Translations under genes and position numbers: made by a program
In this document: in pieces, positions 12,365 through 27,723 of the stretch
How positions within the stretch are numbered: position 1 is the stretch's first letter
Layout: each line of letters begins with the position of its first letter
Notes under the pieces: model-generated
The model's database searches: none
Told to the model about the DNA's origin: nothing
Seen by the model: only the letters and a program-made list of their open reading frames with translations
Assembly: GCA_965198875.1 (NCBI GenBank)
Contig: CBDAPU010000001.1
Span: 131,146-195,145, forward strand
Reading direction: 5' to 3'
DNA from: Gammaproteobacteria bacterium
Lineage (GTDB): Bacteria; Pseudomonadota; Gammaproteobacteria; Eutrophobiales; Eutrophobiaceae
Length of the DNA stretch: 64,000 bases

Positions 12365-12434
12365 TTTAAGTATCAGTTTGATATTGTCTTGTGCTTATGA
12401 TTAATATTCTTTATCTCCCCTTTAATCTTTTTGT

Positions 12435-13442
12435 TCATTCACATCGGTTAATATCTCGCATTCTCTCGAGAACATCCAGGCCCTGCTGTTTCAAAAAATA
12501 AATCAGATCGATAAATATCCAGTTCTCGGCAAGTTTATCGCCTTCACGCCGGTAGATATCAACAACACGCATTTCCGAGCGCACGCTGGATGCCGGAAGC
12601 CCCATAAAACCCCCGGTTGGTTTCGCTGACAGGTTTGCCCAGCCGAACCAGCCGGCAAAACTGCCCTCGGCAAGGCGACAAATATGACCATTGAATTTGA
12701 TACTATCCAGACCCTGGCTAAACGGCCCCTGATGTTGTTCCTCATACCTCTCTATGGTATAGGTCGCACCGATCCCCGCCGGCCCAAACCAGAGCATATC
12801 GTTGTGCCAGGTTTGGGCGAGTTCATCCTGAGTTGAGTTAAATCTTTCTGTGCTTGTCAGGTCATCACACATCCGCTTGATCAGCGCCAGAGTTTTAGCC
12901 CCTTCTGCCGGAGCCTGGTGAGCAAAGAGCAAGCCATCATGGGTGCGTGGTCCGGGAGTGATGATGGCGGCGCCTGTCTGTAGTGGTAGCGGACTTAAAC
13001 CGGCCTGCTGCATAATACTGATAATGTCGCAGAATAAAGCAGTCTCGCTGATCTTTCCGTCAGTAATTCGATTGAACTCGGCATAACGCAGGAACCCCAT
13101 TTTTCCTGTAGATGGAATACCAAGCCAGTCCTTGTCGAACAGACCCAGTAAATGTCCCATGGAGCAAACCCACTCACTGGAAAAATTGTCCACATCATTT
13201 AATCCCGCCATGAAAATATCCTGACGCCTCTGTATCGCCGTGAATGATTCTCGGAACGGCTTCCAGAATACATCTGCTACGGCATTTGCACCCTGCTGTT
13301 CGTAGAACGGATGCATACCCCGCCAGTAATAATCGCGCGTGGTATAGCGCTTTAGTACTTCAGCAATATCATTTTCCTGTGCCGCATCCAGCTCATCGTA
13401 ATACTGTCTTACCAGGGCCTTGCTATTTTGAAAATTAGTCAT
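12435..13442 (-). CDS. tandem NTF2/SnoaL-like protein, paralog 4
   Basis: 335 aa. Two repeats (…GIPSTGKMGFLRYAEFNRITDGKISE…; …GLPASSVRSEMRVVDIYRREGDKLAENWIFIDLIYFLKQQG). Confidence 0.7.
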   Translation of the reverse strand: MTNFQNSKALVRQYYDELDAAQENDIAEVLKRYTTRDYYWRGMHPFYEQQGANAVADVFWKPFRESFTAIQRRQDIFMAGLNDVDNFSSEWVCSMGHLLGLFDKDWLGIPSTGKMGFLRYAEFNRITDGKISETALFCDIISIMQQAGLSPLPLQTGAAIITPGPRTHDGLLFAHQAPAEGAKTLALIKRMCDDLTSTERFNSTQDELAQTWHNDMLWFGPAGIGATYTIERYEEQHQGPFSQGLDSIKFNGHICRLAEGSFAGWFGWANLSAKPTGGFMGLPASSVRSEMRVVDIYRREGDKLAENWIFIDLIYFLKQQGLDVLERMRDINRCE

Positions 13443-13456: not shown

Positions 13457-14614
13457 TTAACTACGCGCAACAGCGATCTGCATCATGACATCGAGTTCAT
13501 TAAACAACATCCATTCCTTAACGATATATCCGTTGGTGATCTGATGTTGCGTGATCCCCCAGATCTGGACTTCACAACCTGTAGGTACGCCATAAATGCC
13601 TGCGCCTGTATGCGTACCTATGGCACTCCAGCGCTCCGATGTCAGATACCCCTGCTCGTCATTGCCCATCCAGTAAACCTCATCAACCTGCAGTTTTAGA
13701 TCCGGAAAAGCGCTTATCAATGATAAAAGAAATCCCTGGTAAGATTTGTGTCCGGTAAAAGTCCGGTTAGTTGGCCCATGAAATCCAAAGTTTGGATCAT
13801 AACTATCCACCAGCGCTGCATAGTCCCGACTGTTCCAAAGCCTATTGAAGTTTTCACGGGTGAATGCATCCACATCAAAACCTGAAACCGGGGAACTGAT
13901 GGATATTGCCTGCACGGGACTCGCCGCACAACGTAATTCCTGCCACGTTACCCTATCCCTCGGCCAGCCGGCAGGTGCCTCCCTGATCATCCTGGTAACT
14001 ATCTCATCCAGATCATGACCGAGTTGCAACAACATACTTGAGTTGTTGTATAAAACATGTTCAAGAAAAATCACATTGTCCAAAGCAACACAGTTAGCAA
14101 TGACTAATACGTCAACATGCCTGTTGGTAGCGAGACCATATTTACTGTCGCCGTCGTTTGTTCCGCGGATGATGGTACGATGTGATGTGTGATACCCCAC
14201 TTCATCATCGCCAGCCCAGATAATCTCATCGGCAAGCAACTTAATATCAGAGAACGCGCCAGTTGTATGGTAGGTGTCCACGATGATTTTTTTATTTCCT
14301 GATTGCAGGCCATAATCGTCATAGACTTGGGATGTCTCCGAGTATGTGTTGCCGATATACTCAACATCTCGCTCTTCCCAGATTTTGAATGTAATACGCA
14401 CAATATAATCGATAATATTCCGGTAAGTCCCCTCAAAACCAGACATAGACTGCCTGGGGCCAAAATCATCCGGTATACGTTTTTCACTATCGGTAAAACC
14501 ACCACCGAAACCAGTACGGCCAGCATAAGCATCCAGTGAAATATTGTAATCAGTTGGCATATGTTCTCGCGCTAATGGCTCAGCCGTCTTTTTAGCAATC
14601 ATGTTTGATTCCAT
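13457..14614 (-). CDS. tandem NTF2/SnoaL-like protein, subtype B (paralog of 5483-6469)
   Basis: 385 aa. Shares the subtype-B signatures (…NIIDYIVRITFKIWEERDVEYIGNTYS…, …HTGAGIYGVPTGCEVQIWGITQHQITNGYIVKEWMLFNELDVMMQIAV) with 5483-6469. Confidence 0.65.
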   Translation of the reverse strand: MESNMIAKKTAEPLAREHMPTDYNISLDAYAGRTGFGGGFTDSEKRIPDDFGPRQSMSGFEGTYRNIIDYIVRITFKIWEERDVEYIGNTYSETSQVYDDYGLQSGNKKIIVDTYHTTGAFSDIKLLADEIIWAGDDEVGYHTSHRTIIRGTNDGDSKYGLATNRHVDVLVIANCVALDNVIFLEHVLYNNSSMLLQLGHDLDEIVTRMIREAPAGWPRDRVTWQELRCAASPVQAISISSPVSGFDVDAFTRENFNRLWNSRDYAALVDSYDPNFGFHGPTNRTFTGHKSYQGFLLSLISAFPDLKLQVDEVYWMGNDEQGYLTSERWSAIGTHTGAGIYGVPTGCEVQIWGITQHQITNGYIVKEWMLFNELDVMMQIAVARS

Positions 14615-14964: not shown

Positions 14965-14978
14965 TTGCATTCGAAGTA
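14965..14978 (+). promoter_or_regulatory. shared 14-bp cis element TTGCATTCGAAGTA upstream of the amidohydrolase gene
   Basis: Exact 14-mer followed by TATAAA, about 130 bp upstream of the 15107 start. Confidence 0.5.
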
Positions 14979-15037: not shown

Positions 15038-15106
15038 GGGATGCATCGTCTTTAAGACAAGTCACGGATGGGCTTGTTCAGGGCTTCCTTAATGTCGGGT
15101 TCGCAT

Positions 15107-16018
15107 ATGCAGGATATTGATTTCATCATTGACGCCCATCATCACCTCTGGGACTTGCAGGCTTGTCACTATCCGTGGTTAATGGCCAAGGGGGTTAAGC
15201 GCTTTTTTGGTGATCCGACCCCTATTCAAAAAAATTATTTGATAGAGGATTTTTTTGCTGACACAGGAAACCTGCCTGTCACTGGCTCAGTGCATATTCA
15301 AGTAGGGGTTAAGGAGAACCAGGCCCTGGATGAGACGCTCTGGCTGCAATCTGTCGCCGACTCGAAAACAGGCGGGGGTTTTCCCCAGGCTATTGTGGCG
15401 TTCTGTGATCTGTCGGCGGATGATGCACTAGCCCAAATAGAGGAACACCGAATCTGTCCTAACCTGCGAGGCATTCGGCAGATCATCGGTCGCTCACCGA
15501 AGGAAGACCGGCATACCCATAGCCGCGCCCTGATCGATGATACTACCTGGAGGGAAAACCTGTGCCGTCTGGCGGATCATGGATTGGCCTTTGATCTGCA
15601 ACTCATTCCTGAGTACATGGGCGCTGCCTATGGAGTTTTGCGTAAGGTTGCCGATACTCACATTGCGCTGTGTCATTGCGGCTCGCCGTTTGATCAGAGC
15701 AAGGCGGCGCTGGATTTCTGGAAAAAGGAAATAAAGAAACTGGCGCAACTGCCGAACGTTTTCTGCAAGCTCTCCGGCTTTGGCATGTTTGACCATCACT
15801 GGTCAAGCGAGAGTATCAGGCCGATTATCGACACTGTGATTGAGGTCTTTACCCCCGAGCGTTGCATGTTCGGCTCCAATTTCCCCGTGGATAAACTCTA
15901 TAGCGATTATCAAAGACTTTGGCATGCCTATTCTGAAATCACCCATGCACTCAGTAATGATGAGAAGCATGCCCTGTTCTTCGCAACGGCCAATGAATTT
16001 TATTCATTAAACCTGTAA
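15107..16018 (+). CDS. amidohydrolase-2 family (TIM-barrel metal-dependent hydrolase/decarboxylase-like) enzyme
   Basis: The ATG at 15107 gives MQDIDFIIDAHHHLWD, the hallmark HxH start of Amidohydrolase_2 / ACMSD / LigI-type enzymes. The ORF track offers a longer 15068 start. Confidence 0.7.
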   Translation: MQDIDFIIDAHHHLWDLQACHYPWLMAKGVKRFFGDPTPIQKNYLIEDFFADTGNLPVTGSVHIQVGVKENQALDETLWLQSVADSKTGGGFPQAIVAFCDLSADDALAQIEEHRICPNLRGIRQIIGRSPKEDRHTHSRALIDDTTWRENLCRLADHGLAFDLQLIPEYMGAAYGVLRKVADTHIALCHCGSPFDQSKAALDFWKKEIKKLAQLPNVFCKLSGFGMFDHHWSSESIRPIIDTVIEVFTPERCMFGSNFPVDKLYSDYQRLWHAYSEITHALSNDEKHALFFATANEFYSLNL

Positions 16019-16120: not shown

Positions 16121-16816
16121 TTATGACAGCGCCAGCTTAACCGCTTCTTCGGCATGGATTGTCGTCGTATCATAAAGGGGTATTGATATGTGCTCGGGCT
16201 TGATCAATAAAGCGAGCTCGGTACAAGCCAAAATCACCGCCTCAACCTCCCGGGCGATCAGATCCCTTATCACATCCAGGCAGGTTTGTCTGGATGCATC
16301 CCTGATCACGCCAAGACATAATTCTGCATAGATGATGTCGTGAATCGCTGTTTGTTGTTCGCTATCAGGGACGACTACGTTAAGGCCGAATTTTTCAATG
16401 AGCCTGCCCTTATAAAAATCCTGCTGCATAGTGAATTGAGTGCCCAGCAAGCCTACTCGTGCAATGTTATCAGCGACTACTGCTTGCGCCGTTGCATCGG
16501 CGATATGTAAAACGGGAATGGCAATCGCCGCTTCTATTTCCTCGAACAGCTTGTGCATGGTATTTGTGCAGATGATGAGGAGATCAGCACCGCCGGCCTC
16601 TACTGATTTTGCCGCCGTGATCAGCAGCTCCGCTGCCGTATCCCATCTGCCCTGATGTTGCAGTTTGTTAATTTCCTCAAAATCAACACTGTTTAAGATT
16701 ATTTTTGCTGAGTGCAATCCCCCCAGAGTATTTTTTACTTCCCTGTTGATCGTTTTGTAATAACTTACCGTTGACTCCCAACTCATGCCGCCCAACATGC
16801 CGATGGTCTTCATCAA
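16121..16816 (-). CDS. Asp/Glu/hydantoin racemase family protein (aspartate racemase-like)
   Basis: 231 aa. Conserved cysteine motifs of the family (LLIICTNTMH and VILACTELALL). Confidence 0.7.
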   Translation of the reverse strand: MMKTIGMLGGMSWESTVSYYKTINREVKNTLGGLHSAKIILNSVDFEEINKLQHQGRWDTAAELLITAAKSVEAGGADLLIICTNTMHKLFEEIEAAIAIPVLHIADATAQAVVADNIARVGLLGTQFTMQQDFYKGRLIEKFGLNVVVPDSEQQTAIHDIIYAELCLGVIRDASRQTCLDVIRDLIAREVEAVILACTELALLIKPEHISIPLYDTTTIHAEEAVKLALS

Positions 16817-16832
16817 GCGCGCCGAAATAAAG

Positions 16833-17600
16833 TCATGTTTTTAATGTTGTACACACAGCATTGGCGCCGTTGATGATGAAGCCGTGATCGGAGCCGAGCA
16901 GGAATAATGATACGCCTTTTTCCCTCCATACCTCGGCTTCCTCCGGGGCGGAGATGAACATGCCGATGTTTGTAGCGCTCGCCCTGCCGGCGGCACAGAC
17001 CCTCTCCACAGCATCCATGACCACGCTGTCGTTGGCTGAGCCCGCCTTCAAGGCCACCGTCAGATCAATACGGCCAACAAATAAACAATCAACACCGGCA
17101 ACCGCCCCTATCTCCTCGGCCGCTTCCACGGCGGCCGGGTCTTCAATCTGCACAATCACCGTTGTCTGCTCTTCACTATTGGCCAGGTGCTCCGGCATGG
17201 GCCTTGTGGTATAGGCGGCGGCGCGGGTGGAGCCGGCATAGCCCCTGCCCCCTTCACCAAAATGCGCCGCGGCCACCACCGCTTCGGCTTGTGTTGCCGT
17301 GCTGACATGGGGCACGAGGACCCCTGCTGCACCACAGTCCAGGGCCTGCAGGATATATTCAGGGGAATGGGCGGCTATCCGCACCAGTGACGGCATTTGC
17401 ATTGCGCGCAGGGCATGGATCGAGCTGTCCAGTTCAAGCCGACCAAAGGGGGCATGCTCGGCGTCCAGGCATATCACATCCAGCTCAGTCAAACCCAGCA
17501 CTTCGGCGATGATGGGTGAAGGCGTCTTAACGAAGGTGCCGAGCAGGAGTTCTTTCGAGAGCAAACGCTGACGAAAGCCGCTGGCAGGGGATGCGCTCAT
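16833..17600 (-). CDS. HpcH/HpaI aldolase / citrate lyase beta-like family protein
   Basis: 255 aa. Family-typical segments (VICLDAEHAPF; VQIEDPAAVEAAEEIGAVAGVDCLFVGRIDL). Its start overlaps the upstream gene's stop by 4 nt (translational coupling). Confidence 0.75.
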   Translation of the reverse strand: MSASPASGFRQRLLSKELLLGTFVKTPSPIIAEVLGLTELDVICLDAEHAPFGRLELDSSIHALRAMQMPSLVRIAAHSPEYILQALDCGAAGVLVPHVSTATQAEAVVAAAHFGEGGRGYAGSTRAAAYTTRPMPEHLANSEEQTTVIVQIEDPAAVEAAEEIGAVAGVDCLFVGRIDLTVALKAGSANDSVVMDAVERVCAAGRASATNIGMFISAPEEAEVWREKGVSLFLLGSDHGFIINGANAVCTTLKT

Positions 17601-18751
17601 GCGCCCTTTTTCCAGAGTTGTGCAGAGGCCATCTGTGCGCCTGCCGCCAGGGTCGCCAGTTTGGCGTAGACGATGTCTTCATCCACAGTGCCGAAACCGG
17701 CAAAGGTGGAGAAACCACAGTCGGTGCCGGCAAGCACACGTTCACGCCCGACTATGTCGGCAAATCGGCAGATACGTTGCGCCACCAACCGGGGATGCTC
17801 AATGAAGTTGGTTGTTGAGTCGATGACGCCGGGAATGAGTATTTTGCTCTCCGGGATCCTGGTGTTTTCAAACACGTCCCATTCGTGGGCGTGCCGGGGG
17901 TTGGCCGATTCAAATAACAGTGCATCGGGTTTGGCTTTCAGGGCAATGGGCAATACCATCTCCATCGGCGCATCCCGATGATGCGGCCCTTCATAATTAC
18001 CCCAGCACACATGCAGGCGCATTTTATCGGACGGAATATTACGCACGGCATCGTTCAGCACATCCACATGCAGGCTGGCCAGTTCAACATAGGCTTTATC
18101 ATCCTTGTCTTTGAACAGGGTATGTCGGCCAAGACCCAGATCCGGCGAGTCCAGTTGCAGCAGATAACCGGCGTCAACAATGGCTTCATACTCAGGCCGC
18201 ATGGCCTCGGCCAGTGCCGCCAGATAACGCCCATGATCGGGATAATGCTGATTGGGCTGGAACAGGGCGATCACGCCGGGCGATGCGGCGTTCATGAATC
18301 CCTCGACCGGCTTATGCAAGGCGATGGCGCTGGCGAAATTTTTTAAGTCCCTTTGTAACGGCGCCCTGTCCTTAACCCTGATCTCGCCCACGCAACAGGG
18401 TCGTTTATACGTGGGTGTGCCGCCGGATTGCGCCAGACGTTGCAAAAAATCCGGATAGTCTTCCAGGTCCCCGGGCGGTGTTCTTGGGCTGTCCCCGGCA
18501 AAACCGGTGATCCGATCTTTTATGTAAGTCGCATAACTTATCTTACTCATCTCCCCATCACTGACGACATCGACTCCGACTTCAACCTGACGCCTCACCA
18601 CACCTTTAACCGCCTCGGCGATGGTGGCGTGTAATGCCGTTGCATCATTTGCCTCGCCATTTTCCCGGGCGAATATGCCGTCGGTCACTGCTTGTGATCG
18701 GGGCAGGCTGCCGACATGGGTGATCAGTATTCTATCTTTACTGGTTTTCAT
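17597..18751 (-). CDS. cobalamin-independent methionine synthase II (MetE C-terminal domain)-like methyltransferase fold protein
   Basis: 384 aa. N-terminal ITHVGSLPRS, a putative zinc-ligand pattern (H..C in HVCWGNYE, C in GTDCGF), and a length typical of stand-alone MetE-like proteins. Confidence 0.7.
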   Translation of the reverse strand: MKTSKDRILITHVGSLPRSQAVTDGIFARENGEANDATALHATIAEAVKGVVRRQVEVGVDVVSDGEMSKISYATYIKDRITGFAGDSPRTPPGDLEDYPDFLQRLAQSGGTPTYKRPCCVGEIRVKDRAPLQRDLKNFASAIALHKPVEGFMNAASPGVIALFQPNQHYPDHGRYLAALAEAMRPEYEAIVDAGYLLQLDSPDLGLGRHTLFKDKDDKAYVELASLHVDVLNDAVRNIPSDKMRLHVCWGNYEGPHHRDAPMEMVLPIALKAKPDALLFESANPRHAHEWDVFENTRIPESKILIPGVIDSTTNFIEHPRLVAQRICRFADIVGRERVLAGTDCGFSTFAGFGTVDEDIVYAKLATLAAGAQMASAQLWKKGA

Positions 18752-18767
18752 GGTTACTCTGCTATCA

Positions 18768-19478
18768 TCAAGCCGCCTGCAGCCATCTTCTCATCGCCTC
18801 ATTAACCGCTTCCGGCCTCTCCATAGTGGACAGATGACCGCACTCCTCTATTAAAACCAGCTTGCTGTTTGCAATCATTGAGGCCATTTCTTTATGGATA
18901 TTGATGGGACATAATTTATCTTCTACGCCACAGAGCACCAGGGTTGGCGCAGTGATCCCCGCTAATGTACTCCGACTCTCCACTCTACTCTTTATTGCCG
19001 CACATTGTCTTTCAAAAACCTCGACGCCTAAATCCATGGCCATCTGCATCACTGCATCCAGTATCGCCTGATCATGTTTGTTGGCCTCGGCAAGATACAG
19101 CGGCTTGAGCGCATCGGCCACGACTTGCTGAAGCTCTCCGGCAATCGCTCTTTGTAATAGTTGATCTCTCTGCGTTGAGCGATCGGTTATATCGGCGTGA
19201 TCATTGGTATCCAGCAAGGCCAGGCGGGTGATACGCTCCGGCGCCTGGCGCCATAATTCAAACACGACAAACCCGCCCATGGACAGGCCGGCAACGGCAA
19301 ATCTCTCCGGCGCCTGTTGCAGGATATGGCTCGCCATGGCGGCAATCGAGTCATATGAAGACACATCGGCCACACTCAGCGAGCGGCAATGGGTTTGTAA
19401 GGGCTCCCATTGTGCCGACCACAGACGAGCATCACACATCATGCCCGGTATTAAGATGAGATGTTCTTCACCACGCAT
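18768..19478 (-). CDS. alpha/beta hydrolase fold protein
   Basis: 236 aa. Nucleophile elbow GLSMGG, with a C-terminal histidine region (ECGHLSTMERPEAV). Confidence 0.65.
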   Translation of the reverse strand: MRGEEHLILIPGMMCDARLWSAQWEPLQTHCRSLSVADVSSYDSIAAMASHILQQAPERFAVAGLSMGGFVVFELWRQAPERITRLALLDTNDHADITDRSTQRDQLLQRAIAGELQQVVADALKPLYLAEANKHDQAILDAVMQMAMDLGVEVFERQCAAIKSRVESRSTLAGITAPTLVLCGVEDKLCPINIHKEMASMIANSKLVLIEECGHLSTMERPEAVNEAMRRWLQAA

Positions 19479-19533
19479 TTCTTTAGGGTTTTAAGAATAC
19501 TTCAAATGCCGTTATTTAAGAGAAATATTTCGC

Positions 19534-20595
19534 TCAGGACAGGCGCGCCGAGCCGCCGGGCAACATGTCGCCGGAGAAGACCCGCATTTCAGGTGATTTG
19601 TCTGGTTCTTCCACCCTGTCTAAAATCATATCGACTGCTGCCTGTGACATTTGCGCCACCGGCTGGCGGATGGTGGTCAGGTTGTAACCGGACCAGATTG
19701 CCGGCGCCACGCCATCGAACCCGACCACGGATATATCATTCGGCACCGCCAGAGAGAAGTCTTCACGCAAGGCGTCAATACAGCCAATCGCCATCACGTC
19801 ATTGGCGCAGATCACCGCATTCAGATCGCCGCTCAGCCCCCTCATCAAGGCATGAACCCCGGCCCGGCCGCTCCCATAGGTATAATCACCCTGGACGATG
19901 GGTGCCTGATCAAAGCCGAGAGCAATCAGGCGATCACGCGCGCCAGCCGTGCGCTGAACACTCACCAGCGAGTCTTCCGGACCACTGATCACGCCAAATG
20001 ATGTATGTCCGGCATTGACCAGCTTATTGACCAGCATCCTCTCCCCGGCCTCCTGATCGCAACACACCGCACTGACCGGGCGGTCCTGAATCGTGCGATT
20101 GAAAAATACCAGCGGCAGACCTCGCTGTTCAAATTTATCGATTTGCTCCAGAGAGAAGGTGCTCGCCACCACAACCCCATCCACCTGATACTGAAACACC
20201 TGCCCGATGATCTGGTCAATATCCCGCTCCCGATGCAGGGTAAACAGCAACACATGGACGCCACGACTGGAAAAACCCTGGTTAAGCTCAAAGAGCACTT
20301 CCGGATAATGCAGGTTGGTGAAGTCAGATAAAATCACCCCTACCAGGTTGGAGCGACGGGTGATCAGGCTTCTGGCGATGGCATTGGGCTGATAACCTAA
20401 TTTATCCGCCGCCTTTATCACCTGCGCGCGCATCTTTTTGGAAACACTGGCGCCGGGCTTGAAACACCGGGACACGGCCGATTGCGATACGCCCGCCAGT
20501 TTTGCAACATCATAGGAGGTGACCTGCTGGGCTTTTTTAGCCGGGGATGTGGCCTGCGCCGCCAGTTGCAAGACAGAGGTGTCGGTTTTTCTCAT
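19534..20595 (-). CDS. LacI family transcriptional regulator
   Basis: 353 aa. N-terminal HTH (VTSYDVAKLAGVSQSAVSRCF) followed by a periplasmic-binding-protein-like sugar-binding fold. Sits inside the minus-strand catabolic operon. Confidence 0.85.
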   Translation of the reverse strand: MRKTDTSVLQLAAQATSPAKKAQQVTSYDVAKLAGVSQSAVSRCFKPGASVSKKMRAQVIKAADKLGYQPNAIARSLITRRSNLVGVILSDFTNLHYPEVLFELNQGFSSRGVHVLLFTLHRERDIDQIIGQVFQYQVDGVVVASTFSLEQIDKFEQRGLPLVFFNRTIQDRPVSAVCCDQEAGERMLVNKLVNAGHTSFGVISGPEDSLVSVQRTAGARDRLIALGFDQAPIVQGDYTYGSGRAGVHALMRGLSGDLNAVICANDVMAIGCIDALREDFSLAVPNDISVVGFDGVAPAIWSGYNLTTIRQPVAQMSQAAVDMILDRVEEPDKSPEMRVFSGDMLPGGSARLS

Positions 20596-20604
20596 CGCAC
20601 CACG

Positions 20605-21897
20605 TCAGGCGGCCTTGTCCGTAAAGCGCCGCACCCGTATGTCCGCCTGCTCTTTGTGTCCCATGAACCCCTCCAGCTCACACAGGCGCGAGCAGTACTC
20701 ACCCACCTGCACTGAGGCTTCCCGGCTGATCTTCTGGTAGGTGCAGGTCTTAATAAACTTGCCCACCCACAGACCGCCGGTATAACGGGCGGCCTTCCTG
20801 GTCGGCAGGGTATGATTGGTACCGATGACCTTATCACCATAGGAGACGTTGGTTTCCGGCCCTAAAAACAAGGCCCCGTAATTGCTCATATTGTTAAGAA
20901 AATAGTCCGGCTCTTCGGTCATCACCTGCACATGCTCAGAGGCGATCTCATCGGCCAGCTCTCGCATCTCTTCATAGGAATCACAGACAATGACCTGCCC
21001 ATAGTCCCGCCAGGCCGGCCCGGCAACATCGCCAGTGGGCAAAATGCTCAACTGTCGCTCGACCTCCTGCATGGTCTCTTTGGCGAGTTTCTCAGAATTG
21101 GTCAGCAGTATCGCTGGTGAGTTCGGCCCATGCTCGGCCTGCCCCAGCAGATCGGCGGCGCACAGCTCACCATCCACGGATTCATCGGCAATGATCAGGG
21201 TTTCAGTCGGCCCGGCGAACAAGTCAATCCCCACGCGGCCAAATAGCTGGCGTTTTGCCTCCGCCACAAAGGCATTGCCCGGCCCCACCAGCATATCCAC
21301 TGGCGCAATGGTTTCCGTGCCGAGGGCCATAGCGCCTACCGCCTGCACCCCACCCAGGCAGTAAATTTCACTCGCACCCCCCATATCCATAGCCACAACG
21401 ATAGCAGGATGGGGCTGGCCCTGATTGGGCGGGGCGGTAGCGATAATGCGCTGCACGCCGGCGACTTTTGCCGTCACCACGCTCATGTGGGCGGAGGCGA
21501 CCATAGGATAACGCCCCCCGGGCACATAGCAACCAACGCTGTTGACGGGAATATTCCTATGCCCGAGCACCACGCCGGGCAGGGTTTCCACCTCCACATC
21601 CTGCAAGGCGTCCCGTTGATGTTGGGCGAACCGGCGGATCTGGCTCTGGGCGAATTGAATATCTGCTTTGACCTGCTCTGATACCTGCTCATAACAGGCC
21701 CTGATCTCCTCCGTGGTCAAGCGGAAGGAGGCCGGGTTCCAGTCGTCAAACTTCTCTGAGTACTCCCGCAAGGCGCCATCGCCCCTTCGGCTGATCTCGC
21801 CCAGAATATCTTCAACGGTTTTTCTTACCCTGGCGTCCTGTGTTGCGACCTCTTCCCCGGATCTTCCGGTTTTCAAATACGTGACCATGTCTTCCAC
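20605..21897 (-). CDS. histidinol dehydrogenase (HisD) family NAD-dependent dehydrogenase, catabolic context
   Basis: 430 aa. HisD-family blocks ([30 protein letters not shown]; [16 protein letters not shown]). It is first in a catabolic operon rather than a his operon, so a HisD-like 4-electron alcohol-to-acid oxidase (e.g. sulfopropanediol dehydrogenase type) is plausible. Confidence 0.8.
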
Positions 21898-21981: not shown

Positions 21982-21995
21982 TACTTCGAATGCAA
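21982..21995 (-). promoter_or_regulatory. shared 14-bp cis element TTGCATTCGAAGTA, oriented toward the HisD-like operon
   Basis: Plus strand reads TACTTCGAATGCAA. On the minus strand the element is followed by TATAAT (plus-strand ATTATA at 21976-21981). 85 bp upstream of the HisD-like start and 18 bp before the divergent SDR start. Confidence 0.5.
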
Positions 21996-22012: not shown

Positions 22013-22777
22013 ATGACTGAACGGGCAAACTCCCGTGCAGGAGAGCAAAACCTACTGGCTGGTCGGCAGGCACTGGTGACCGGCGCCAGCCGGGGTATAG
22101 GCCGCGCCTGTGTACAAACCCTGGTTGACGCTGGTGCAAAGGTAGTCGCCGTTGCCCGTAGCGCTGACGCCCTGGCGGCCGTTAAATCCTATGCGCCGGA
22201 TAACATCGAAAGCTGGCGGATGGATGTGCAAACGGCGGATTTCTACGACCGGCTCGAGGCCATGACGCAGCTTGATATCCTGATCAACAACGCCGGCACA
22301 AACAAGCCCCAGCCCTTTGCGGAGGTCGATGCAGATACCCTGTCTTCTATGGTTAAGCTCAACATTGAAGCGGCATTTAAGACAGCACAATCGGCGGCCA
22401 GAGTGATGTTGAGAGCGCAGATCAAAGGAGCGATCATCAACATGTCATCGCAGATGGGGCATGTGGGTGCGCCGGAGAGGACGGTCTACTGTATGACGAA
22501 ACACGCCGTTGAAGGGCTCACCAAGGCCATGGCGGTTGAACTTGCGCCCCGGGGCATTCGCATCAATGCCGTCGCCCCCACCTTCATTGAGACGCCCCTG
22601 ACGGGGCCCATGCTCGATGACCCTGGGTTTAAGGCGTCAGTCCTGGCGCGGATCCCTCTGGGCCGTGTGGGACAGGCGCAAGACATTGCCCGGGCCGTGC
22701 TGTTCCTGGCCTCGGATCAAGCACGCATGATCACTGGCGAGAGCTTAAAAATAGACGGTGGCTGGACGGCGCAATAG
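22013..22777 (+). CDS. short-chain dehydrogenase/reductase (SDR) family oxidoreductase
   Basis: 254 aa. Glycine-rich cofactor loop TGASRGIGRA, the NNAG motif, and a catalytic YCMTKHA (YxxxK). Confidence 0.85.
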   Translation: MTERANSRAGEQNLLAGRQALVTGASRGIGRACVQTLVDAGAKVVAVARSADALAAVKSYAPDNIESWRMDVQTADFYDRLEAMTQLDILINNAGTNKPQPFAEVDADTLSSMVKLNIEAAFKTAQSAARVMLRAQIKGAIINMSSQMGHVGAPERTVYCMTKHAVEGLTKAMAVELAPRGIRINAVAPTFIETPLTGPMLDDPGFKASVLARIPLGRVGQAQDIARAVLFLASDQARMITGESLKIDGGWTAQ

Positions 22778-22905: not shown

Positions 22906-22919
22906 TTGCATTCGAAGTA
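22906..22919 (+). promoter_or_regulatory. shared 14-bp cis element TTGCATTCGAAGTA upstream of the intact TonB-dependent receptor/sulfatase operon
   Basis: Exact 14-mer followed by CATTTTATG, 64 bp upstream of the 22983 start. Confidence 0.55.
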
Positions 22920-22982: not shown

Positions 22983-25409
22983 ATGATTACGTATCTTACC
23001 CCCCCCCCTCAAGTCTCATTATTGCCACGGCTGTTTACTCTCGCCCTGTGCATGATGCTCGGTGTATCCGCCCATGCCGCCATTACACTTGAAGAAATTA
23101 CTGTGACCGCTGAGAAACGTGCGGAGAGCGTGCAAGACGTTGGACTATCAATATCAGCTTTTGATGAGGATGCCATGGACCGTGCCGGTATTGATGATGT
23201 AAGTAGAATCGAACTGATTGTTCCCGGCGTTAACTTTGCCTATGCCGGTAATGACGCCAAATTCAATGTCCGCGGTGCTAACTCTACCAATACGTTTAAC
23301 GATAATGGTTCTATCGTGGGTACGTATATTGATGGAGTATATAAACCTCGTGCATCACAACAAACACGGGCTTTTTTCGATGTAGAGCGTGTTGAATTCC
23401 TGAAAGGTCCTCAAGGCACACTTTACGGACGCAATACCTTTGCCGGGGCCCTGAATCTTCATACAAATCGTCCCTATCTTGAAGGAATCAGTGGTGGTCT
23501 TGAGGCTGGCTATGAGCGCTTTAACACCATGAAGTTTGAAGGCTATGTGAATGTACCCCTTAGCGATCAGTTCGCCGTACGTCTTGCTGGATTCGTTGAA
23601 GACGGTGATGGCTTTGTCAAAAACAATGCAGGCCCGGATGTAGGTGCTCCGGATGAGCAGGGTGTACGGCTCAGTCTCTTATGGGAAGCCAATGAAAATT
23701 TCGATGTGGTTTTTCGTTACACCCGTATCAGGGAATCAGGTACTTCAGCAGGTCTGTTCGGTTATAGAAATATTTGTCGTCGCGTTACCCCACAAGGCAT
23801 AACCGACCCCTTTGGTACAGTGACAGATTGTCAGAATCCACAAAATGGCTCAGACAGCTTGCCTTCAGGTAATTCAGGGCCCTATAACGTCTCACAGGAT
23901 TATGTCCCAGATGCTGATGTTGATGATGATAATGTCACTTTAGAAATGAACTGGGATGCCGGTCCTGTACTGATAAAGTCAGTTACGTCTTATACGGATT
24001 TTAAAAACAACATCGGCTTTGATTTTGACTATAGTCAAAATCCATTTCAGAGGGGTGGATTTGACGAAAGTGCTGAATCGTATACTCAGGAATTTCAGTT
24101 TACGTCAGATTACGATAGTCCTTTCCAGTGGACCTCTGGTGCTTATTACTCACATGATGAAACGTTTTTCAGTTTTACTATTTTCAACCAGACTGAAGAG
24201 AGTATGGAGGGGATGGGGGATGACAGGCGCCCGGTTAATCGTCCCACTGTCATGGGCCCTGGTGGAGCAGACTTTGAATTGTTGAACGGAACACCACTGG
24301 TTTCAACTGCTACAAGTCTCAGTGGTTTCTTCGGCAGCAGCCAGTGGATTGAGATCAATACCTTTGGACTCTATCTGCAAGGTGAGTTCAGTGTGAATGA
24401 TAATCTTCGCCTTATTGGTGGCGTGCGATATAACTATGAGGAGAAAGACCTCTCCGGCGGTGGCAGTAACTTCACCGCTAATGGTCCCGTGACGGTAACT
24501 GTTGAAAGTGGTGCGGCGCCTTTAATTGTCCCGGAGTTCTCCCGTGATATATTTGCTTATAATCGTAATGCTACCGGCGCCAACAATCTCAGGCGGTCGT
24601 TTAATAATGTAAGCTGGAAAGCAGGTATTGAATATGATTTGACGAACTACGATGCGATGCTCTATTTCACAACTGCAACAGGATTCTTATCAGGCGCGGT
24701 CAACTCTGACGGCTCCTCTACTGACGAACAGGAATCGCAGTTATATGAAGCTGGTGTCAAGAGTACGCTCATGGATGGTCGCCTGCTATTTAACCTGTCA
24801 GGCCACTATACTGAATACACTAATTTGTTATCACAGTTCCAGGTTCCTATAGCTGGTATTGTTCAAACATTCAGTCAGAATGGCGGCGAGATTGACGCTT
24901 GGGGTATCGAACTTGATACTGTCTATAATCCTGTCGATAATTTGACATTTGTATTTTCAGCAGCCTATCTGGACGCAGAATTCGGCGTGTTTGGTCAGAC
25001 AAACCCTTACCAGTTACTTAATGGCGTTGTACAAAGTTTTGTAGATGTAGATGGAGAGACACCTGGATGGTCACCGGACTTTACTGCTTCAATCAGTGCT
25101 TCCTATGATCTTCAACTTAACAATGGTGCCACACTGACGCCTTATATCCAGTTTTATTACAGTGACGGATATAACACGAGTAACCTGTTATCTATTGACC
25201 CAAGCCATCAACAAGATAGTTTTACCAAAACGGATCTACGCTTGGTATGGCGTTCACCCAGCAATAAATATGCCTTAGAGGGCTTTGTTGAGAACATTGA
25301 AGATGAAGAAGTGTTGGCGCGTGGTAACAATGGCGGTGACGATAATGTACAAACAGGTTATCTCTACCCTAGAAATTATGGCGTACGCTTTAAAGCGAGT
25401 TGGGACTAA
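22983..25409 (+). CDS. TonB-dependent outer membrane receptor
   Basis: 808 aa. Signal peptide, plug domain (ITVTAEKRAESVQDVGLSIS), beta-barrel, C-terminal aromatic residue. Carries a C10 tract near codon 7, in frame. Intact paralog of the disrupted 6929-9325 gene. Confidence 0.85.
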   Translation: MITYLTPPPQVSLLPRLFTLALCMMLGVSAHAAITLEEITVTAEKRAESVQDVGLSISAFDEDAMDRAGIDDVSRIELIVPGVNFAYAGNDAKFNVRGANSTNTFNDNGSIVGTYIDGVYKPRASQQTRAFFDVERVEFLKGPQGTLYGRNTFAGALNLHTNRPYLEGISGGLEAGYERFNTMKFEGYVNVPLSDQFAVRLAGFVEDGDGFVKNNAGPDVGAPDEQGVRLSLLWEANENFDVVFRYTRIRESGTSAGLFGYRNICRRVTPQGITDPFGTVTDCQNPQNGSDSLPSGNSGPYNVSQDYVPDADVDDDNVTLEMNWDAGPVLIKSVTSYTDFKNNIGFDFDYSQNPFQRGGFDESAESYTQEFQFTSDYDSPFQWTSGAYYSHDETFFSFTIFNQTEESMEGMGDDRRPVNRPTVMGPGGADFELLNGTPLVSTATSLSGFFGSSQWIEINTFGLYLQGEFSVNDNLRLIGGVRYNYEEKDLSGGGSNFTANGPVTVTVESGAAPLIVPEFSRDIFAYNRNATGANNLRRSFNNVSWKAGIEYDLTNYDAMLYFTTATGFLSGAVNSDGSSTDEQESQLYEAGVKSTLMDGRLLFNLSGHYTEYTNLLSQFQVPIAGIVQTFSQNGGEIDAWGIELDTVYNPVDNLTFVFSAAYLDAEFGVFGQTNPYQLLNGVVQSFVDVDGETPGWSPDFTASISASYDLQLNNGATLTPYIQFYYSDGYNTSNLLSIDPSHQQDSFTKTDLRLVWRSPSNKYALEGFVENIEDEEVLARGNNGGDDNVQTGYLYPRNYGVRFKASWD

Positions 25410-25442
25410 AACCCTTGAGATTCTATTTAATCTGAATTGAAT

Positions 25443-25472
25443 GAAGGGGCTTTCCGCCCCTTCTTCATTTTT
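25443..25472 (+). terminator. rho-independent terminator-like hairpin after the TonB-dependent receptor gene
   Basis: GAAGGGGC-tttcc-GCCCCTTC perfect 8-bp stem, followed by a T-rich run (ttcattttt). Confidence 0.55.
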
Positions 25473-25488
25473 AGGGTATGACCAATTA

Positions 25489-27723
25489 ATGAAACGGCGC
25501 CACTTCTTACAATTAACTGCTGCTGCATCTACCTCGTTCCCTATTGCAGCAAAAATGAAATTCAGGGTTAATGATAATAAAAAGTTGCCAAAATGGAATC
25601 CACGACGACATGTTCGAAAACCTAATATTGTTATGGTGGTTCTTGATGATGTGGGTTTTGGTGATCTGGGTTGTTATGGGGCTGAATACAAGACAAAGGC
25701 AATAGATTCATTAGCGAAAGACGGCGTTAGATTTAATAACTTCCATGTGACCGCTCTTTGCGCCCCAACTCGGGCATGTCTATTAACCGGACGAAATGCA
25801 CATGCTGTCGGCGTAGGCAACATTGCTGAGTGGGGTCGCGACCTTCCTGGCTATCATGGTTGGATCAGAAAAGATGCAGCAACACTAGCGGAGTATTTAA
25901 AACCGGATGGCTATACGACATTGGCCACAGGTAAATGGCACTTGTCTGCAATTCATGATCAAAATGGCAGCGGTCCCTATGATCATTGGCCTTCAGGTCG
26001 GGGGTTTGATCGGTGGTACGGCTTTCATGGTAATGCTATGGATCACTGGCACCCGGAAATGTTTGAAAACACGGTGGCGGCCTACCCTGCTAAATCTAAT
26101 GATTACCACTTGAGCGGTGATCTGGTTAATCGTGCTATCAACTATATTGAAGACCATATAAGCGCAACACCTGACAATCCTTTTTTTCTTTATCTGGCTT
26201 TTGGTGCATGCCATTTTCCATTACATGTCCCAGCGGACGATATCAGACGCCATAAAGGCAAATATGATAGTGGTTGGGACTTATTAAGAGAACAGCGGTT
26301 TCAACGTCAGCAAGAAATCGGCATTATCCCGAATAATACAAAGCTGGCGCCACGCAACCCTAATATACCGGCTTGGCCAGAAATGACTGGCGAGCAAAAG
26401 CGCATCGCAGCATACGGCCAGGAAGTTTACGCTGCATTCATAGAACATACTGACAGTCAGATTGGGTGTCTGGTAAATTTTCTAAAAACAGAGGAGCAGT
26501 TTAAAGATACCATCTTCATGGTACTTTCTGATAACGGTGCCACGGGTTCCGGCGGCGTTATTGAAGGTATTCTTGATGTTCGCAGGCATTATTACTATGA
26601 AAAAGAATCCTATGAAGAACTGGCCAGGCATTATAAATTACTGGGCACTGATAACTCCTATGGCATGCATTCACAGGGCTGGGCTCAGGCCGGTAACACG
26701 CCTTTAAAATGGTACAAGGCCGATACTTATGGTGGTGGTACCCGCGCTCCTTTGATAATTACCTGGCCGAATGGAAATATAGGGAAAAATGAAATTCGTA
26801 CTCAATACCATCATGTTATTGATGTTGTGCCTAGTCTGTTCGAGATGATTAACAAACCTCAGAACGATATTGTTAATAACAATAAGATTCTACCAATACA
26901 GGGTACGAGTTTCGCTTATAGTTTTGATGCGCCTGAAGCCCCAACAAATAAACGCATCCAGTATTTCGAAACGGCCGGTGATCGGGCAATATGGGTTGAT
27001 GGCTGGAAAGCGGTCACAAGACATACCAAAGGCGACCAATACGAAGATGATGTTTGGGAACTTTATAATACGGCACATGATTTCTCCGAGATTGACAATC
27101 TGGCGAGGCGTGAGCCGGAACTGCTGCAAAAACTCATCAGCCTGTGGCACAGGGAAGCAAGGCGGGACAATGTTTTACCAATGGAGGATGACCTGTTTAC
27201 ACTGTATAAAGATATTGTGCCCAGAGCGCGGCCAAAATATACCTTCTACCCGGGCATGACACGGCTGGACAGACTGAGTGCGCCAGATATTTTAACGTAT
27301 GACAGTAAGTGGGCGGCGGAAGTTATGCTCAAAAATAATTATGCAAATGGAGTTATTCTCGCATCCGGTGACAGTGGTGCTGGCTATGAATTGTTTATGC
27401 AGGACGGTTATCTTGAGTTTGTTTATATTTATACTCGCTTTAAACGATACACCTTAAAATCACCTCAACGTATTAAGGCTGGAAAACATGTATTAGGACT
27501 GCAGATACACAAAACCGGAGAGCGTAGTGCTAATGTTTATATGAAAATCAATGGAAAAAGAATCGCTTCAATGCACTTGCCTGAGATGTGGCAGATATTC
27601 TCTCCAAATTCAGGAATTCGTTGTGGTGAGAACAGGCATTCACCTGTTAGCAGAAACTACCAGGGGCATTTTCCATTCCAGCAGACACTCAAACGAGTTA
27701 CCGTAGAGTTAGGGCTAAAATAA
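25489..27723 (+). CDS. arylsulfatase-family sulfatase with twin-arginine (Tat) signal peptide
   Basis: ATG at 25489 gives MKRRHFLQLTAAAS, an RRxFL Tat motif. The formylglycine signature C-x-P-x-R is present (LCAPTRACLLTGRN). The sulfatase N-terminal domain starts at VVLDDVGFGDLGCYG. 745 aa from this start. Confidence 0.85.
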   Translation: MKRRHFLQLTAAASTSFPIAAKMKFRVNDNKKLPKWNPRRHVRKPNIVMVVLDDVGFGDLGCYGAEYKTKAIDSLAKDGVRFNNFHVTALCAPTRACLLTGRNAHAVGVGNIAEWGRDLPGYHGWIRKDAATLAEYLKPDGYTTLATGKWHLSAIHDQNGSGPYDHWPSGRGFDRWYGFHGNAMDHWHPEMFENTVAAYPAKSNDYHLSGDLVNRAINYIEDHISATPDNPFFLYLAFGACHFPLHVPADDIRRHKGKYDSGWDLLREQRFQRQQEIGIIPNNTKLAPRNPNIPAWPEMTGEQKRIAAYGQEVYAAFIEHTDSQIGCLVNFLKTEEQFKDTIFMVLSDNGATGSGGVIEGILDVRRHYYYEKESYEELARHYKLLGTDNSYGMHSQGWAQAGNTPLKWYKADTYGGGTRAPLIITWPNGNIGKNEIRTQYHHVIDVVPSLFEMINKPQNDIVNNNKILPIQGTSFAYSFDAPEAPTNKRIQYFETAGDRAIWVDGWKAVTRHTKGDQYEDDVWELYNTAHDFSEIDNLARREPELLQKLISLWHREARRDNVLPMEDDLFTLYKDIVPRARPKYTFYPGMTRLDRLSAPDILTYDSKWAAEVMLKNNYANGVILASGDSGAGYELFMQDGYLEFVYIYTRFKRYTLKSPQRIKAGKHVLGLQIHKTGERSANVYMKINGKRIASMHLPEMWQIFSPNSGIRCGENRHSPVSRNYQGHFPFQQTLKRVTVELGLK

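Follow-up and report, generated by a model that had tools for sequence, protein, structure and literature searches.

The window analysed here is a 64,000-nt stretch of a contig from a Gammaproteobacteria bacterium (assembly GCA_965198875.1, contig CBDAPU010000001.1, positions 131,146 to 195,145). Our subject is a minus-strand operon at its positions 16121-21897, which encodes a MetE-like protein and a HisD/HpsN-like dehydrogenase, together with the surrounding genes that appear to be regulated with it. Tentatively, we propose that these genes serve the import and breakdown of a polar, O-methylated cyclic compound. A sequence-only reading of this DNA had predicted six open reading frames (ORFs) for the operon, and the ORF list of the window contains all six exactly where they had been placed:

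16121..16816, minus strand: Asp/Glu-type amino-acid racemase, YgeA-like (Pfam, NCBIfam); a lineage-specific addition to the operon
16833..17600, minus strand: HpcH/HpaI class II pyruvate aldolase with a DxEH motif (Pfam, NCBIfam); its start overlaps the stop of the MetE-like gene
17597..18751, minus strand: MetE-like 'core methionine synthase' homologue (Pfam, NCBIfam, residues); proposed homocysteine-dependent demethylase
18768..19478, minus strand: alpha/beta hydrolase, PcaD/enol-lactonase-like (Pfam, NCBIfam)
19534..20595, minus strand: LacI-family regulator, presumed repressor of the regulon (Pfam, NCBIfam); it co-varies with the operator across loci
20605..21897, minus strand: HisD/HpsN-family NAD/Zn four-electron dehydrogenase (Pfam, HpsN alignment); likely start ATG 21888

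Each domain ascribed to these products was found above its Pfam gathering score, with 156 bits for Asp_Glu_race, 108 bits for HpcH_HpaI (PF03328, gathering score 25), 55 bits for Meth_synt_2 and 482 bits for Histidinol_dh; the alpha/beta hydrolase domain and the LacI and Peripla_BP domains passed as well. The genes are as tightly packed as had been described: the stop codon of the MetE-like gene and the start codon of the HpcH gene share an ATGA (gcATGAgc), and the remaining gaps are 16, 16, 55 and 9 nt long. We revised the start of the HisD-like gene to ATG 21888, which is probably correct because the resulting 427-aa product is identical to the public gene call. The neighbours named earlier, which are an Amidohydro_2 enzyme, a short-chain dehydrogenase/reductase (SDR), two sodium:solute symporters (SSF) and a sulfatase with a Tat signal, are all present. 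It also holds that no named pathway fits the operon; the aldolase, the MetE-like protein, the hydrolase, the regulator and the racemase all score below the NCBIfam equivalog thresholds.

Putative LacI operator and extent of the regulon

The six genes appear to form the enzymatic centre of a larger, LacI-controlled regulon of about 22 genes, which would occupy about 28 kb (approximately positions 300-28800 of the window). The view of the six genes as a genuine catabolic unit is borne out by their conserved co-localisation, described below, but the limits of that unit had been drawn too narrowly, as the regulon also includes six double-SnoaL proteins and a bicupin. Its members outside the operon are:

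319..1335, minus strand: bicupin (Pfam Cupin_2); proposed ring-cleaving or decarboxylating metalloenzyme
1693..3306, plus strand: sodium:solute symporter SSF1; best specific NCBIfam match PRK10484, solute:sodium symporter family
3370..4389, plus strand: double-SnoaL/NTF2 protein Sno1 (type A)
4474..5460, plus strand: double-SnoaL/NTF2 protein Sno2 (type A)
5420..6469, plus strand: double-SnoaL/NTF2 protein Sno3 (type B)
6978..9325, plus strand: TonB-dependent receptor (TBDR) TBDR1, split by a frameshift
10295..11908, minus strand: sodium:solute symporter SSF2
11909..12434, minus strand: remnant of a decayed double-SnoaL gene (multi-frame tblastn fragments)
12435..13442, minus strand: double-SnoaL/NTF2 protein Sno4 (type A), the most conserved paralogue
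13457..14614, minus strand: double-SnoaL/NTF2 protein Sno5 (type B)
15068..16018, plus strand: Amidohydro_2 enzyme, proposed lactonase, most similar to L-fucono-1,5-lactonase
22013..22777, plus strand: SDR oxidoreductase (glucose 1-dehydrogenase subfamily)
22983..25409, plus strand: TonB-dependent receptor TBDR2
25441..27723, plus strand: Tat-exported formylglycine-type sulfatase (CAPTR motif, KRRHFL twin-arginine signal), an accessory member
27748..28782, plus strand: double-SnoaL/NTF2 protein Sno6 (type A)

The 14-mer that the operon had been said to share with other sites is real, and one copy is found in the interval that divides the HisD-like gene from the divergent SDR gene. The window contains TACTTCGAATGCAA in six exact copies, where 0.43 would be expected even with two mismatches allowed, and all six are situated in promoter regions of regulon genes:

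1391..1404, plus strand: operator copy 1 (TACTTCGAATGCAA), divergent bicupin/SSF1 promoter region
1554..1567, minus strand: operator copy 2, same bicupin/SSF1 intergenic region
6854..6867, minus strand: operator copy 3, upstream of TBDR1
14965..14978, minus strand: operator copy 4, divergent Sno5/Amidohydro_2 promoter region
21982..21995, plus strand: operator copy 5, divergent HisD-operon/SDR promoter region
22906..22919, minus strand: operator copy 6, upstream of TBDR2

The transcription units served by these regions are bicupin/SSF1-Sno1-Sno2-Sno3 (two copies), TBDR1, Sno5-Sno4/Amidohydro_2, HisD-operon/SDR and TBDR2-sulfatase-Sno6. A relaxed form of the site, [TG]ACT[TG]CGAATGCAA, has 120 matches across 1.36 Mb of related gamma- and alphaproteobacterial loci, against about 9 expected from the chance rate in the window scaled to 1.36 Mb. 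There it favours positions upstream of TBDR, bicupin, SnoaL, HisD-like, LacI and hydrolase/MetE-like genes, with TBDR being the family most often preceded by it, and it was found upstream of 13 of 657 unrelated ORFs. The LacI protein combines an HTH_LacI domain with a periplasmic-binding-protein fold. In proteobacterial loci the motif is kept together with this regulator, and it is missing from the loci of Acidimicrobiia, SAR324 and Bacteroidota, where the LacI homologue is less than about 42% identical. Because the copies of the 14-mer mark the promoters of the regulon and the motif co-varies with LacI, we infer that the 14-mer serves as operator for the LacI regulator encoded within the operon. 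Its palindrome is only partial (TTCGAA core).

A degenerate operator-like site, TACTTCAAATGCCG, with three mismatches, is present at 19498-19511, in the 55-nt gap between the LacI and hydrolase genes. In three relatives (L006, L008 and L011 in our numbering of the loci) a near-perfect operator site lies between the same two genes, and there may thus be an internal regulated promoter at this position, possibly decayed in the window. As these relatives carry a good site there, the operon may consist of two units, HisD-LacI and hydrolase-MetE-HpcH-racemase.

A second element, GCGCACATCC (GCGCGCATCC at the third site), was noticed 11-14 nt 5' of the 14-mer at three of the six operator copies, in the flanks 6868-6891, 21958-21981 and 22920-22943; its role could be that of a promoter element or of a further regulatory site. 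Scanning the window with Rfam and for tRNAs gave no match, and we therefore assign no riboswitch to it. A promoter and terminator scan of the window performed no better than it did on shuffled sequence.

The GC content between positions 10000 and 28000 is a mosaic, with 54-57% in the six-gene operon and 44-47% in the SSF2-Sno4-Sno5-Amidohydro_2 and TBDR2-sulfatase blocks, which suggests modules with different acquisition histories. The plug domain of TBDR1 is encoded by ORF 6978-7412 and its barrel by ORF 7409-9325, with a frameshift near 7409-7412 that reflects either a pseudogene or a sequencing error; the product of the first of these ORFs consists of a signal peptide and a plug and is 54.5% identical to the N-terminus of TBDR2. 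The 526-nt stretch between SSF2 and Sno4 (11909-12434), which at first appeared empty, is likely a decayed seventh double-SnoaL paralogue.

Conservation of the gene set in other genomes

The MetE-like protein has thousands of homologues. Those closest to it outside its own genome are 72-85% identical and belong to Halieaceae and other marine Gammaproteobacteria, and an identity of 60-77% is kept across at least seven phyla. We compared 82 loci, of which 80 came from a scan of a genome collection with the MetE-like protein (61-77% identity) and two had been looked up earlier. The 80 loci belong to Gamma- and Alphaproteobacteria, Acidimicrobiia, Bacteroidota, SAR324, Planctomycetota and Acidobacteriota. 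The window proteins were used as tblastn queries, and a homologue was counted when it lay within ±10 kb of the MetE-like gene:

Bicupin: 50 of 82 loci
LacI regulator: 49 of 82 loci
HisD-like protein: 45 of 82 loci
SDR: 42 of 82 loci
HpcH aldolase: 41 of 82 loci
SnoaL type B (Sno3): 41 of 82 loci
Alpha/beta hydrolase: 37 of 82 loci
TBDR2: 26 of 82 loci
Amidohydro_2 enzyme: 25 of 82 loci, usually convergent with HpcH
Sulfatase: 5 of 82 loci
Racemase: 1 of 82 loci

In all-against-all clustering the type-A double-SnoaL proteins formed one family, represented in 42 loci, and SSF homologues were found in about 28. The conserved core thus consists of the MetE-like protein, the HisD/HpsN-like protein, the bicupin, double-SnoaL proteins, the SDR, LacI and an importer, to which Proteobacteria usually add the alpha/beta hydrolase and a pyruvate aldolase (HpcH or an RraA-family substitute). 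Wherever a locus carries both the hydrolase orthologue and the MetE-like gene, the two adjoin each other. Elsewhere the SSF symporter is swapped for CUT1 carbohydrate ABC or MFS transporters, and exported esterases are added. Acidimicrobiia, SAR324 and a Flammeovirgaceae genome keep just the MetE-like and HisD-like proteins, the SDR, the bicupin, SnoaL doubles, a regulator and a transporter. On Roseobacter plasmids the set is condensed into one compact operon, in the order ABC transporter, small SnoaL, HisD-like, SnoaL, (SDR), LacI, SnoaL, bicupin, MetE-like, hydrolase and RraA-family gene. In a 21-kb locus of the Chloroflexota (Ca. Leptofilum, L089), at least six double-SnoaL, two LacI and two solute-binding-protein genes surround those for HpcH, the HisD-like protein and the SDR, and the expansion of double-SnoaL genes is a recurrent feature of the system.

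Contrary to the sequence-only reading, the racemase is not a part of this set. It has a homologue in a single related locus and falls below the CuyB (118.7 bits, cut-off 190) and YgeA (286 bits, cut-off 417) equivalog cut-offs, with the generic TIGR00035 subfamily alone being passed. It is a lineage-specific passenger outside the conserved set.

As homologues of the window genes co-localise in 82 loci from many phyla, their arrangement is far beyond chance. A chance adjacency of unrelated genes, such as hisD, a methionine synthase gene and a cell-wall racemase gene, could have been argued from the score of the HisD-like protein above the TIGR00069 hisD cut-off (470 vs 244 bits) and from the methionine-synthase catalytic residues retained by the MetE-like protein. 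However, the genes co-localise across phyla, all transcription units share the operator, and no histidine or methionine biosynthesis genes are among the neighbours; the HisD-like protein is nearer to HpsN than to HisD, and the MetE-like protein scores 101 bits against a methionine-synthase equivalog cut-off of 406 in its best NCBIfam match of this kind. Chance adjacency is thereby refuted, and with it the outcome in which each gene belongs to a separate housekeeping pathway. The candidates authentic hisD and authentic metE were likewise rejected.

The replacement of HpcH is informative with respect to the end of the proposed pathway. The window protein has the PF03328 fold and the catalytic D46-A-E-H of the DxEH motif, like GarL, HpaI and RhmA, and GarL, HpaI and KDR aldolases are its best matches. 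Unlike those enzymes, it reaches at most 146 bits in equivalog models of the GarL/HpaI/RhmA kind (146, 144, 122 and 89 bits against cut-offs of 393, 407, 369 and 441), and an RraA-family gene takes its place in three lineages, including the Roseobacter plasmids and Parasphingorhabdus. LigK-type 4-carboxy-4-hydroxy-2-oxoadipate aldolases belong to this RraA family. Since the RraA-family gene is a non-orthologous replacement of HpcH, a pyruvate-aldolase end step is supported, and the interchangeability of the two suggests that the substrate of HpcH is a 4-substituted 4-hydroxy-2-oxo acid.

On one plasmid that carries the operon (Ruegeria sp. THAF33, L083:11382-11984), a gene for a class I S-adenosylmethionine-dependent methyltransferase is inserted between the bicupin and MetE-like genes; its best match, a weak one, is the corrinoid-protein-associated methyltransferase CpaM.

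The HisD/HpsN-like and MetE-like proteins

The kinship of the HisD-like protein to HpsN, which had been suspected earlier, was confirmed. It scores 417 bits against HpsN, its best solved relative (48.7% identity to CpHpsN), compared with 291 bits against the best HisD structure. HpsN is the 3-dehydrogenase of R-2,3-dihydroxypropane-1-sulfonate (R-DHPS; PDB 8V35, 8WWE); its defining motif is G-R-Y-[A/S]-H, the His126 of which binds the sulfonate and separates HpsN from HisD (PMC11382572). The window protein has the fold of HpsN and, in a HMMER alignment to 8V35, shares with it the zinc ligands Gln248, His251, Asp352 and His411, the catalytic Glu318 and His319, and Lys353. In contrast, its motif is G-R-Y-P-M, with Met at the position of the sulfonate-binding, zinc-capping His126, and G-[KR]-[YF]-P-[LM] was found in 38 of the 39 full-length cluster-linked orthologues. 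It differs from HisD in that the motif is not G-S-A-P-L and in that its context is catabolic. Judging from these residues, the enzyme probably uses NAD+ to oxidise, in a four-electron reaction, a 2-hydroxy primary alcohol or the corresponding aldehyde to the acid. It is a third subfamily, in which the recognised group is expected to differ from a sulfonate.

These data bear directly on catabolism of a C3-sulfonate or a sulfosugar, as had been hinted at earlier. Here the HisD-like protein would act as HpsN and convert DHPS or sulfolactaldehyde to sulfolactate, the racemase would act on cysteate like CuyB, and a keto-deoxy-sulfo sugar acid would be split by the aldolase. The proximity of the HisD-like protein to HpsN, its conserved Lys353, which contacts the sulfonate in HpsN, the sub-threshold CuyB match of the racemase and the nearby sulfatase agree with such a role. 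However, a sulfonate substrate is unlikely because His126 is replaced, by Met or Leu throughout nearly all orthologues, and the racemase is not conserved in the cluster. Moreover, neither SuyAB, Xsc, ComDE, CuyA and SlcD nor a sulfite exporter was found in the scanned ORFs of the window or among the conserved neighbour families that we inspected, and the described pairing with hpsO/hpsP was absent from the same set. We therefore regard sulfonate catabolism as very improbable.

The MetE-like protein is a single Meth_synt_2 barrel of 384 aa. Its solved relatives, 1YPX (of unknown function), MesD (3RPD) and MetE, are all distant. The zinc ligands H247, C249, E281 and C345 are invariant in 28 homologues, and so are the homocysteine ligands S15, E67 and D311, which correspond to Ser433, Glu484 and Asp599 of E. 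coli MetE and, in alignments, fall on the motifs GSFP and HGE in Met6p and ID in MesD. The roles of these residues in MetE were taken from Price et al. (PMC7857596). In its barrel of about 380 aa, with four zinc and three homocysteine ligands invariant, the protein resembles MesA-MesD and the C-terminal domain of MetE (PMC7857596), and it seems, as MesD does, to require a partner system and not folate. Unlike MetE, it has no N-terminal folate-binding barrel; unlike MesD, to which it matches at just 26 bits, it has neither a DUF1852 protein (MesX) nor a corrinoid protein among the scanned ORFs of the window. It also differs from methionine synthases in lying within a LacI-controlled catabolic regulon, where NTF2/SnoaL proteins and an alpha/beta hydrolase are its recurrent partners. 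We infer from these residues a transfer of a methyl (alkyl) group to L-homocysteine from a non-folate donor, and the protein would then define a fifth family of the 'core methionine synthase' kind.

The nature of the donor may be indicated by the contexts of its paralogues. On sphingomonad plasmids (L084:11992-13508 and L086:10028-11541), a paralogue 49% identical to the MetE-like protein and an NTF2 protein of 129 aa are encoded by translationally coupled genes. The paralogue is located either in a cluster with LigM-like, metF, purU, folD and ligABIJK genes, or beside a gene for the p-hydroxycinnamoyl-CoA hydratase/lyase of the ferulate pathway; the coupled pair may be an undescribed demethylase or a module consuming methyl-tetrahydrofolate (methyl-THF). 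In Steroidobacteraceae-type loci (L055, L067 and L076, at about 3000-14000), an orthologue with 62-65% identity is part of an IclR-regulated cluster that also contains a citrate-synthase-like protein, a family III CoA-transferase, a second MetE-like paralogue, a TBDR, a VOC protein, and an FAD aromatic hydroxylase with an intradiol dioxygenase. Additionally, the hydrolase of the window is 31% identical over its full length to a hydrolase encoded beside a LigM-like demethylase in Croceicoccus. From these paralogue contexts and the homology to the LigM-side hydrolase, we conclude by analogy that the MetE-like family is probably linked to the removal of methoxy groups ahead of ring cleavage, with NTF2-fold proteins as partners.

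As regards the substrate, the earlier suggestion of a methylated compound is plausible, and the demethylation of an onium compound, which had been part of it, is possible; however, the ring-cleavage clusters for methoxy-aromatic compounds in which relatives of the MetE-like protein reside point to an O-methyl group. If the compound was a quaternary ammonium or sulfonium osmolyte, such as a betaine-lipid head group, a relative of choline-O-sulfate, gonyol or 4-dimethylsulfonio-2-hydroxybutyrate (DMSHB), the MetE-like protein would act in the manner of BHMT or MmuM and the HisD-like protein would oxidise a terminal alcohol. Its intact homocysteine and zinc sites are suited to this role, and zinc enzymes such as Bmt readily pass methyl groups from onium compounds straight to homocysteine (PMC12366255). 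The organism is marine, onium osmolytes are abundant there, and the sulfatase has a weak match to choline-sulfatase (85 bits, cut-off 433). On the other hand, the sulfatase occurs in just a few of the 82 loci, the importers are SSF and CUT1 ABC systems and not the BCCT/ProU types usual for betaines, and the conserved families include no dimethylglycine/sarcosine oxidase-type enzyme. GcvT/DmdA-type genes were seen only on a Marinovum plasmid, in a separate adjacent cluster for dimethylsulfoniopropionate, and an onium pathway would not explain the bicupin, SnoaL, lactonase and aldolase genes. Onium demethylation thus appears unlikely.

An epoxyalkane:coenzyme M (CoM) transferase system was considered and rejected, as neither alkene monooxygenase nor CoM genes were seen, and the amino-acid thiol site is conserved. 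On a plasmid of Rhodococcus sp. NJ-530 (L085:9998-14360), the gene of a homologue with 52% identity to the MetE-like protein overlaps that of a 2-oxoglutarate/Fe oxygenase, and its neighbours are a phytanoyl-CoA dioxygenase-family gene and a gene for a pyrroloquinoline quinone beta-propeller protein.

Proposed pathway and candidate substrates

Taken together, these data lead us to propose, with a probability of roughly 45%, that the regulon serves the uptake and degradation of a polar O-methylated cyclic compound of the enol or phenol type that bears a hydroxymethyl carbinol. The chemical steps are all conjectural and build on what was observed, namely the identities of the genes, the signs of their co-regulation, their conservation and the intact state of the catalytic residues. 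A TBDR would carry the compound across the outer membrane, after its decorations had been stripped in some genomes by the periplasmic sulfatase or by exported esterases, and a sugar-type importer (an SSF symporter here; a CUT1 ABC or MFS transporter elsewhere) would take it into the cell. The double-SnoaL/NTF2 paralogues might then present the methyl donor, or act on variable substituents by trimming or isomerisation. The MetE-like zinc enzyme would move the methyl group to L-homocysteine, yielding methionine and an unmasked enediol or catechol, and the HisD/HpsN-like enzyme would oxidise the -C(OH)-CH2OH group to an acid. Ring cleavage is assigned, as a proposal, to the bicupin. The SDR, the Amidohydro_2 lactonase and the alpha/beta hydrolase could handle a lactol, lactone or ester in analogy to LigC and LigI, and the HpcH aldolase, or the RraA-family protein, would free pyruvate in analogy to LigK.

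The proposed logic is that of the 4,5-cleavage of protocatechuate and gallate with LigM: demethylation, ring cleavage, lactol oxidation, lactone hydrolysis by an Amidohydro_2 enzyme and, at the end, a class II pyruvate aldolase. LigM-type and ring-cleavage clusters contain paralogues of both the MetE-like protein and the hydrolase, and the group of lactonases nearest to the Amidohydro_2 protein also holds LigI. The THF-dependent LigM shows that aryl methyl ethers can undergo cofactor-free demethylation by an SN2 reaction. Unlike the Lig pathway, however, the regulon contains none of LigM, LigAB, LigC and LigJ, it would use homocysteine instead of THF, a bicupin for ring cleavage and HpcH or a divergent RraA-family aldolase, and its transport and regulation genes are of the carbohydrate type.

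The bicupin has an invariant H79-x-H81-x3-E85 in its N-terminal cupin. Its AlphaFold2 (AF2) model has a predicted local distance difference test score (pLDDT) of 90.9, and a fold search gave MncA, oxalate decarboxylase and the quercetin dioxygenase YxaG as nearest folds, with TM-scores of about 0.5, so that the model resembles Mn/Fe bicupin oxidases and dioxygenases. The six double-SnoaL proteins fall into type A (Sno1, Sno2, Sno4 and Sno6) and type B (Sno3 and Sno5), and they have neither a signal peptide nor a characterised close relative. Sno4 orthologues are 68-75% identical, reaching as far as the Chloroflexota; the model of Sno4, the C-terminal half of which is unreliable, matches generic NTF2 enzymes (IdmH, SnoaL, LEH, PhzA/B). 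PDB sequence searches with the SnoaL doubles and the bicupin returned nothing but uncharacterised or very weak matches.

The carbohydrate-type genes raise the question of whether the regulon degrades a sugar or sugar acid, methylated or modified in some other way, by an oxidative, non-phosphorylative route. By this route, oxidation by the SDR and opening by the lactonase would be followed by a dehydratase step (by the MetE-like protein, the bicupin or SnoaL) to a 2-keto-3-deoxy acid, from which HpcH would release pyruvate and an aldehyde for oxidation by the HisD-like protein, in analogy to the sulfo-Entner-Doudoroff or the oxidative rhamnose/fucose routes. The regulon does resemble the sulfoglycolytic Entner-Doudoroff and oxidative 6-deoxy-sugar pathways in its combination of SDR, lactonase, pyruvate aldolase and an enzyme oxidising a 2-hydroxy-aldehyde, and HpsN itself also oxidises the aldehyde sulfolactaldehyde (PMC11382572). 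In support of that, the LacI regulator is accompanied by SSF symporters with PRK10484 as best specific match (SSF1 orthologues in related loci are 64-72% identical) and, in other lineages, by CUT1 carbohydrate ABC systems. The SDR exceeds the cut-off of the glucose 1-dehydrogenase subfamily (220.9 vs 215 bits), L-fuconolactonase is the best match of the Amidohydro_2 protein (110 bits, cut-off 400), and the best matches of HpcH include GarL and KDR aldolases.

Despite these similarities, no known sugar-acid dehydratase family is among the conserved families inspected in the 82 loci, and no sulfogluconate dehydratase, sulfoquinovosidase or sulfolactate exporter was found in the window or among the inspected conserved neighbour families. 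The part formed by the SDR, lactonase and aldolase is dispensable in several phyla: Acidimicrobiia, SAR324 and Bacteroidota drop the lactonase and aldolase, yet keep the MetE-like and HisD-like proteins, the bicupin and SnoaL. An aliphatic methyl ether would be a very poor methyl donor to a thiolate, and the conserved homocysteine ligands speak against the MetE-like protein being a dehydratase. A sugar or sugar acid is, in our view, an unlikely substrate. Several further compounds (homarine/trigonelline, 5-methylthioribose or S-ribosylhomocysteine, apiose/hamamelose, ascorbate, O-methyl-inositols and rhizopine) were set aside on paper, because, by its chemistry, each leaves the HisD-like protein, the MetE-like protein, the bicupin or SnoaL without a role.

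Within the proposed O-methylated cyclic compounds, a speculative candidate class that fits every step on paper comprises mycosporine-like amino acids (MAAs), 4-deoxygadusol and gadusol, which serve algae, cyanobacteria, corals, fungi and lichens as natural 'sunscreens'. They have an enol methoxy group, a C(OH)(CH2OH) ring carbon and, once demethylated, a reductone ring. The double-SnoaL paralogues would remove the variable amino-acid substituents, and the number of these paralogues could be explained by the variable N-substituents that MAAs carry. The MetE-like protein would be a cofactor-independent, homocysteine-dependent O-demethylase turning the methoxy group into methionine, and the HpsN-like enzyme would oxidise the C7 hydroxymethyl. 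Cleavage of the reductone at C2-C3 by the bicupin would give 4-carboxy-4-hydroxy-2-oxoadipate, the substrate of LigK-type aldolases, and the HpcH or RraA-type aldolase would convert it to pyruvate and oxaloacetate. Bacteria are reported to convert shinorine and porphyra-334 to mycosporine-glycine and 4-deoxygadusol, MAAs are found in the dissolved pool, and sulfated MAAs exist (PMC3083659), which would give the sulfatase a role. Our full-text literature searches found no MAA catabolic genes, and a 2026 review of cyclitols makes no mention of MAA catabolism. That the regulon is the bacterial pathway for the consumption of these compounds is a doubtful assignment.

Several points weigh against the proposed breakdown of an O-methylated cyclic compound. 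The link to methoxy groups draws on the genomic context of paralogues with 49-65% identity, other than the window protein itself, and the sphingomonad paralogue could just consume the 5-methyl-THF made by LigM, without direct demethylation of the substrate. Demethylation of an enol ether by a zinc thiolate is chemically demanding. RraA-family proteins of the cluster match LigK models weakly, reaching about 30 bits where the cut-off is 304. In the bicupin the fourth canonical metal ligand is missing, and only generic folds were matched by it. The roles given to SnoaL proteins are guesses; the Sno4 model has a pLDDT of 60.7 and a poor C-terminal half. The versions in Acidimicrobiia, SAR324 and Bacteroidota have no aldolase and lactonase within 10 kb, and the lower pathway is therefore not universal. 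Finally, LacI, the SSF/CUT1 importers, the glucose-1-dehydrogenase-like SDR and the fuconolactonase-like hydrolase suit a carbohydrate substrate equally well.

All folds encountered here have been described before, and a catabolic regulon under a repressor, equipped with TBDRs, is an ordinary architecture. Full-text literature searches returned no description of the gene combination, and in the sources searched the subfamily of MetE-like putative demethylases, the HpsN-like dehydrogenase subfamily and the expanded double-SnoaL family are undescribed as well. The gene set is widespread, strongly conserved and abundant in marine and soil metagenomes, yet its key proteins all fall short of curated functional models, and it marks an unassigned route for carbon and methyl groups. 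If methyl groups are indeed transferred directly to homocysteine, this would be new enzymology, a cofactor-free O-demethylase doubling as a methionine synthase, with a bearing on lignin valorisation and on B12-independent methionine supply in the sea. If MAAs or gadusols are the substrates, the microbial fate of these abundant UV-screening metabolites becomes testable, as plasmid-borne clusters exist in cultured bacteria. Isolates that bear the cluster are Ruegeria sp. THAF33, Marinovum algicola DG898, Octadecabacter arcticus 238, Pseudohalioglobus sediminis NY5 and Sphingomonas yunnanensis YIM 3.

Two features of the window outside the regulon deserve mention. A third TBDR of 923 aa is encoded at 44645-47416, without a copy of the operator, and is overlapped by a 614-aa antisense ORF (44738-46582) that is probably spurious. 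A restriction-modification pair at 38587-40901, in which the gene of an N6/N4 DNA methylase (38587-39801) overlaps that of a CfrBI-like restriction endonuclease (39765-40901), sits among the housekeeping genes parC, parE and asnS.

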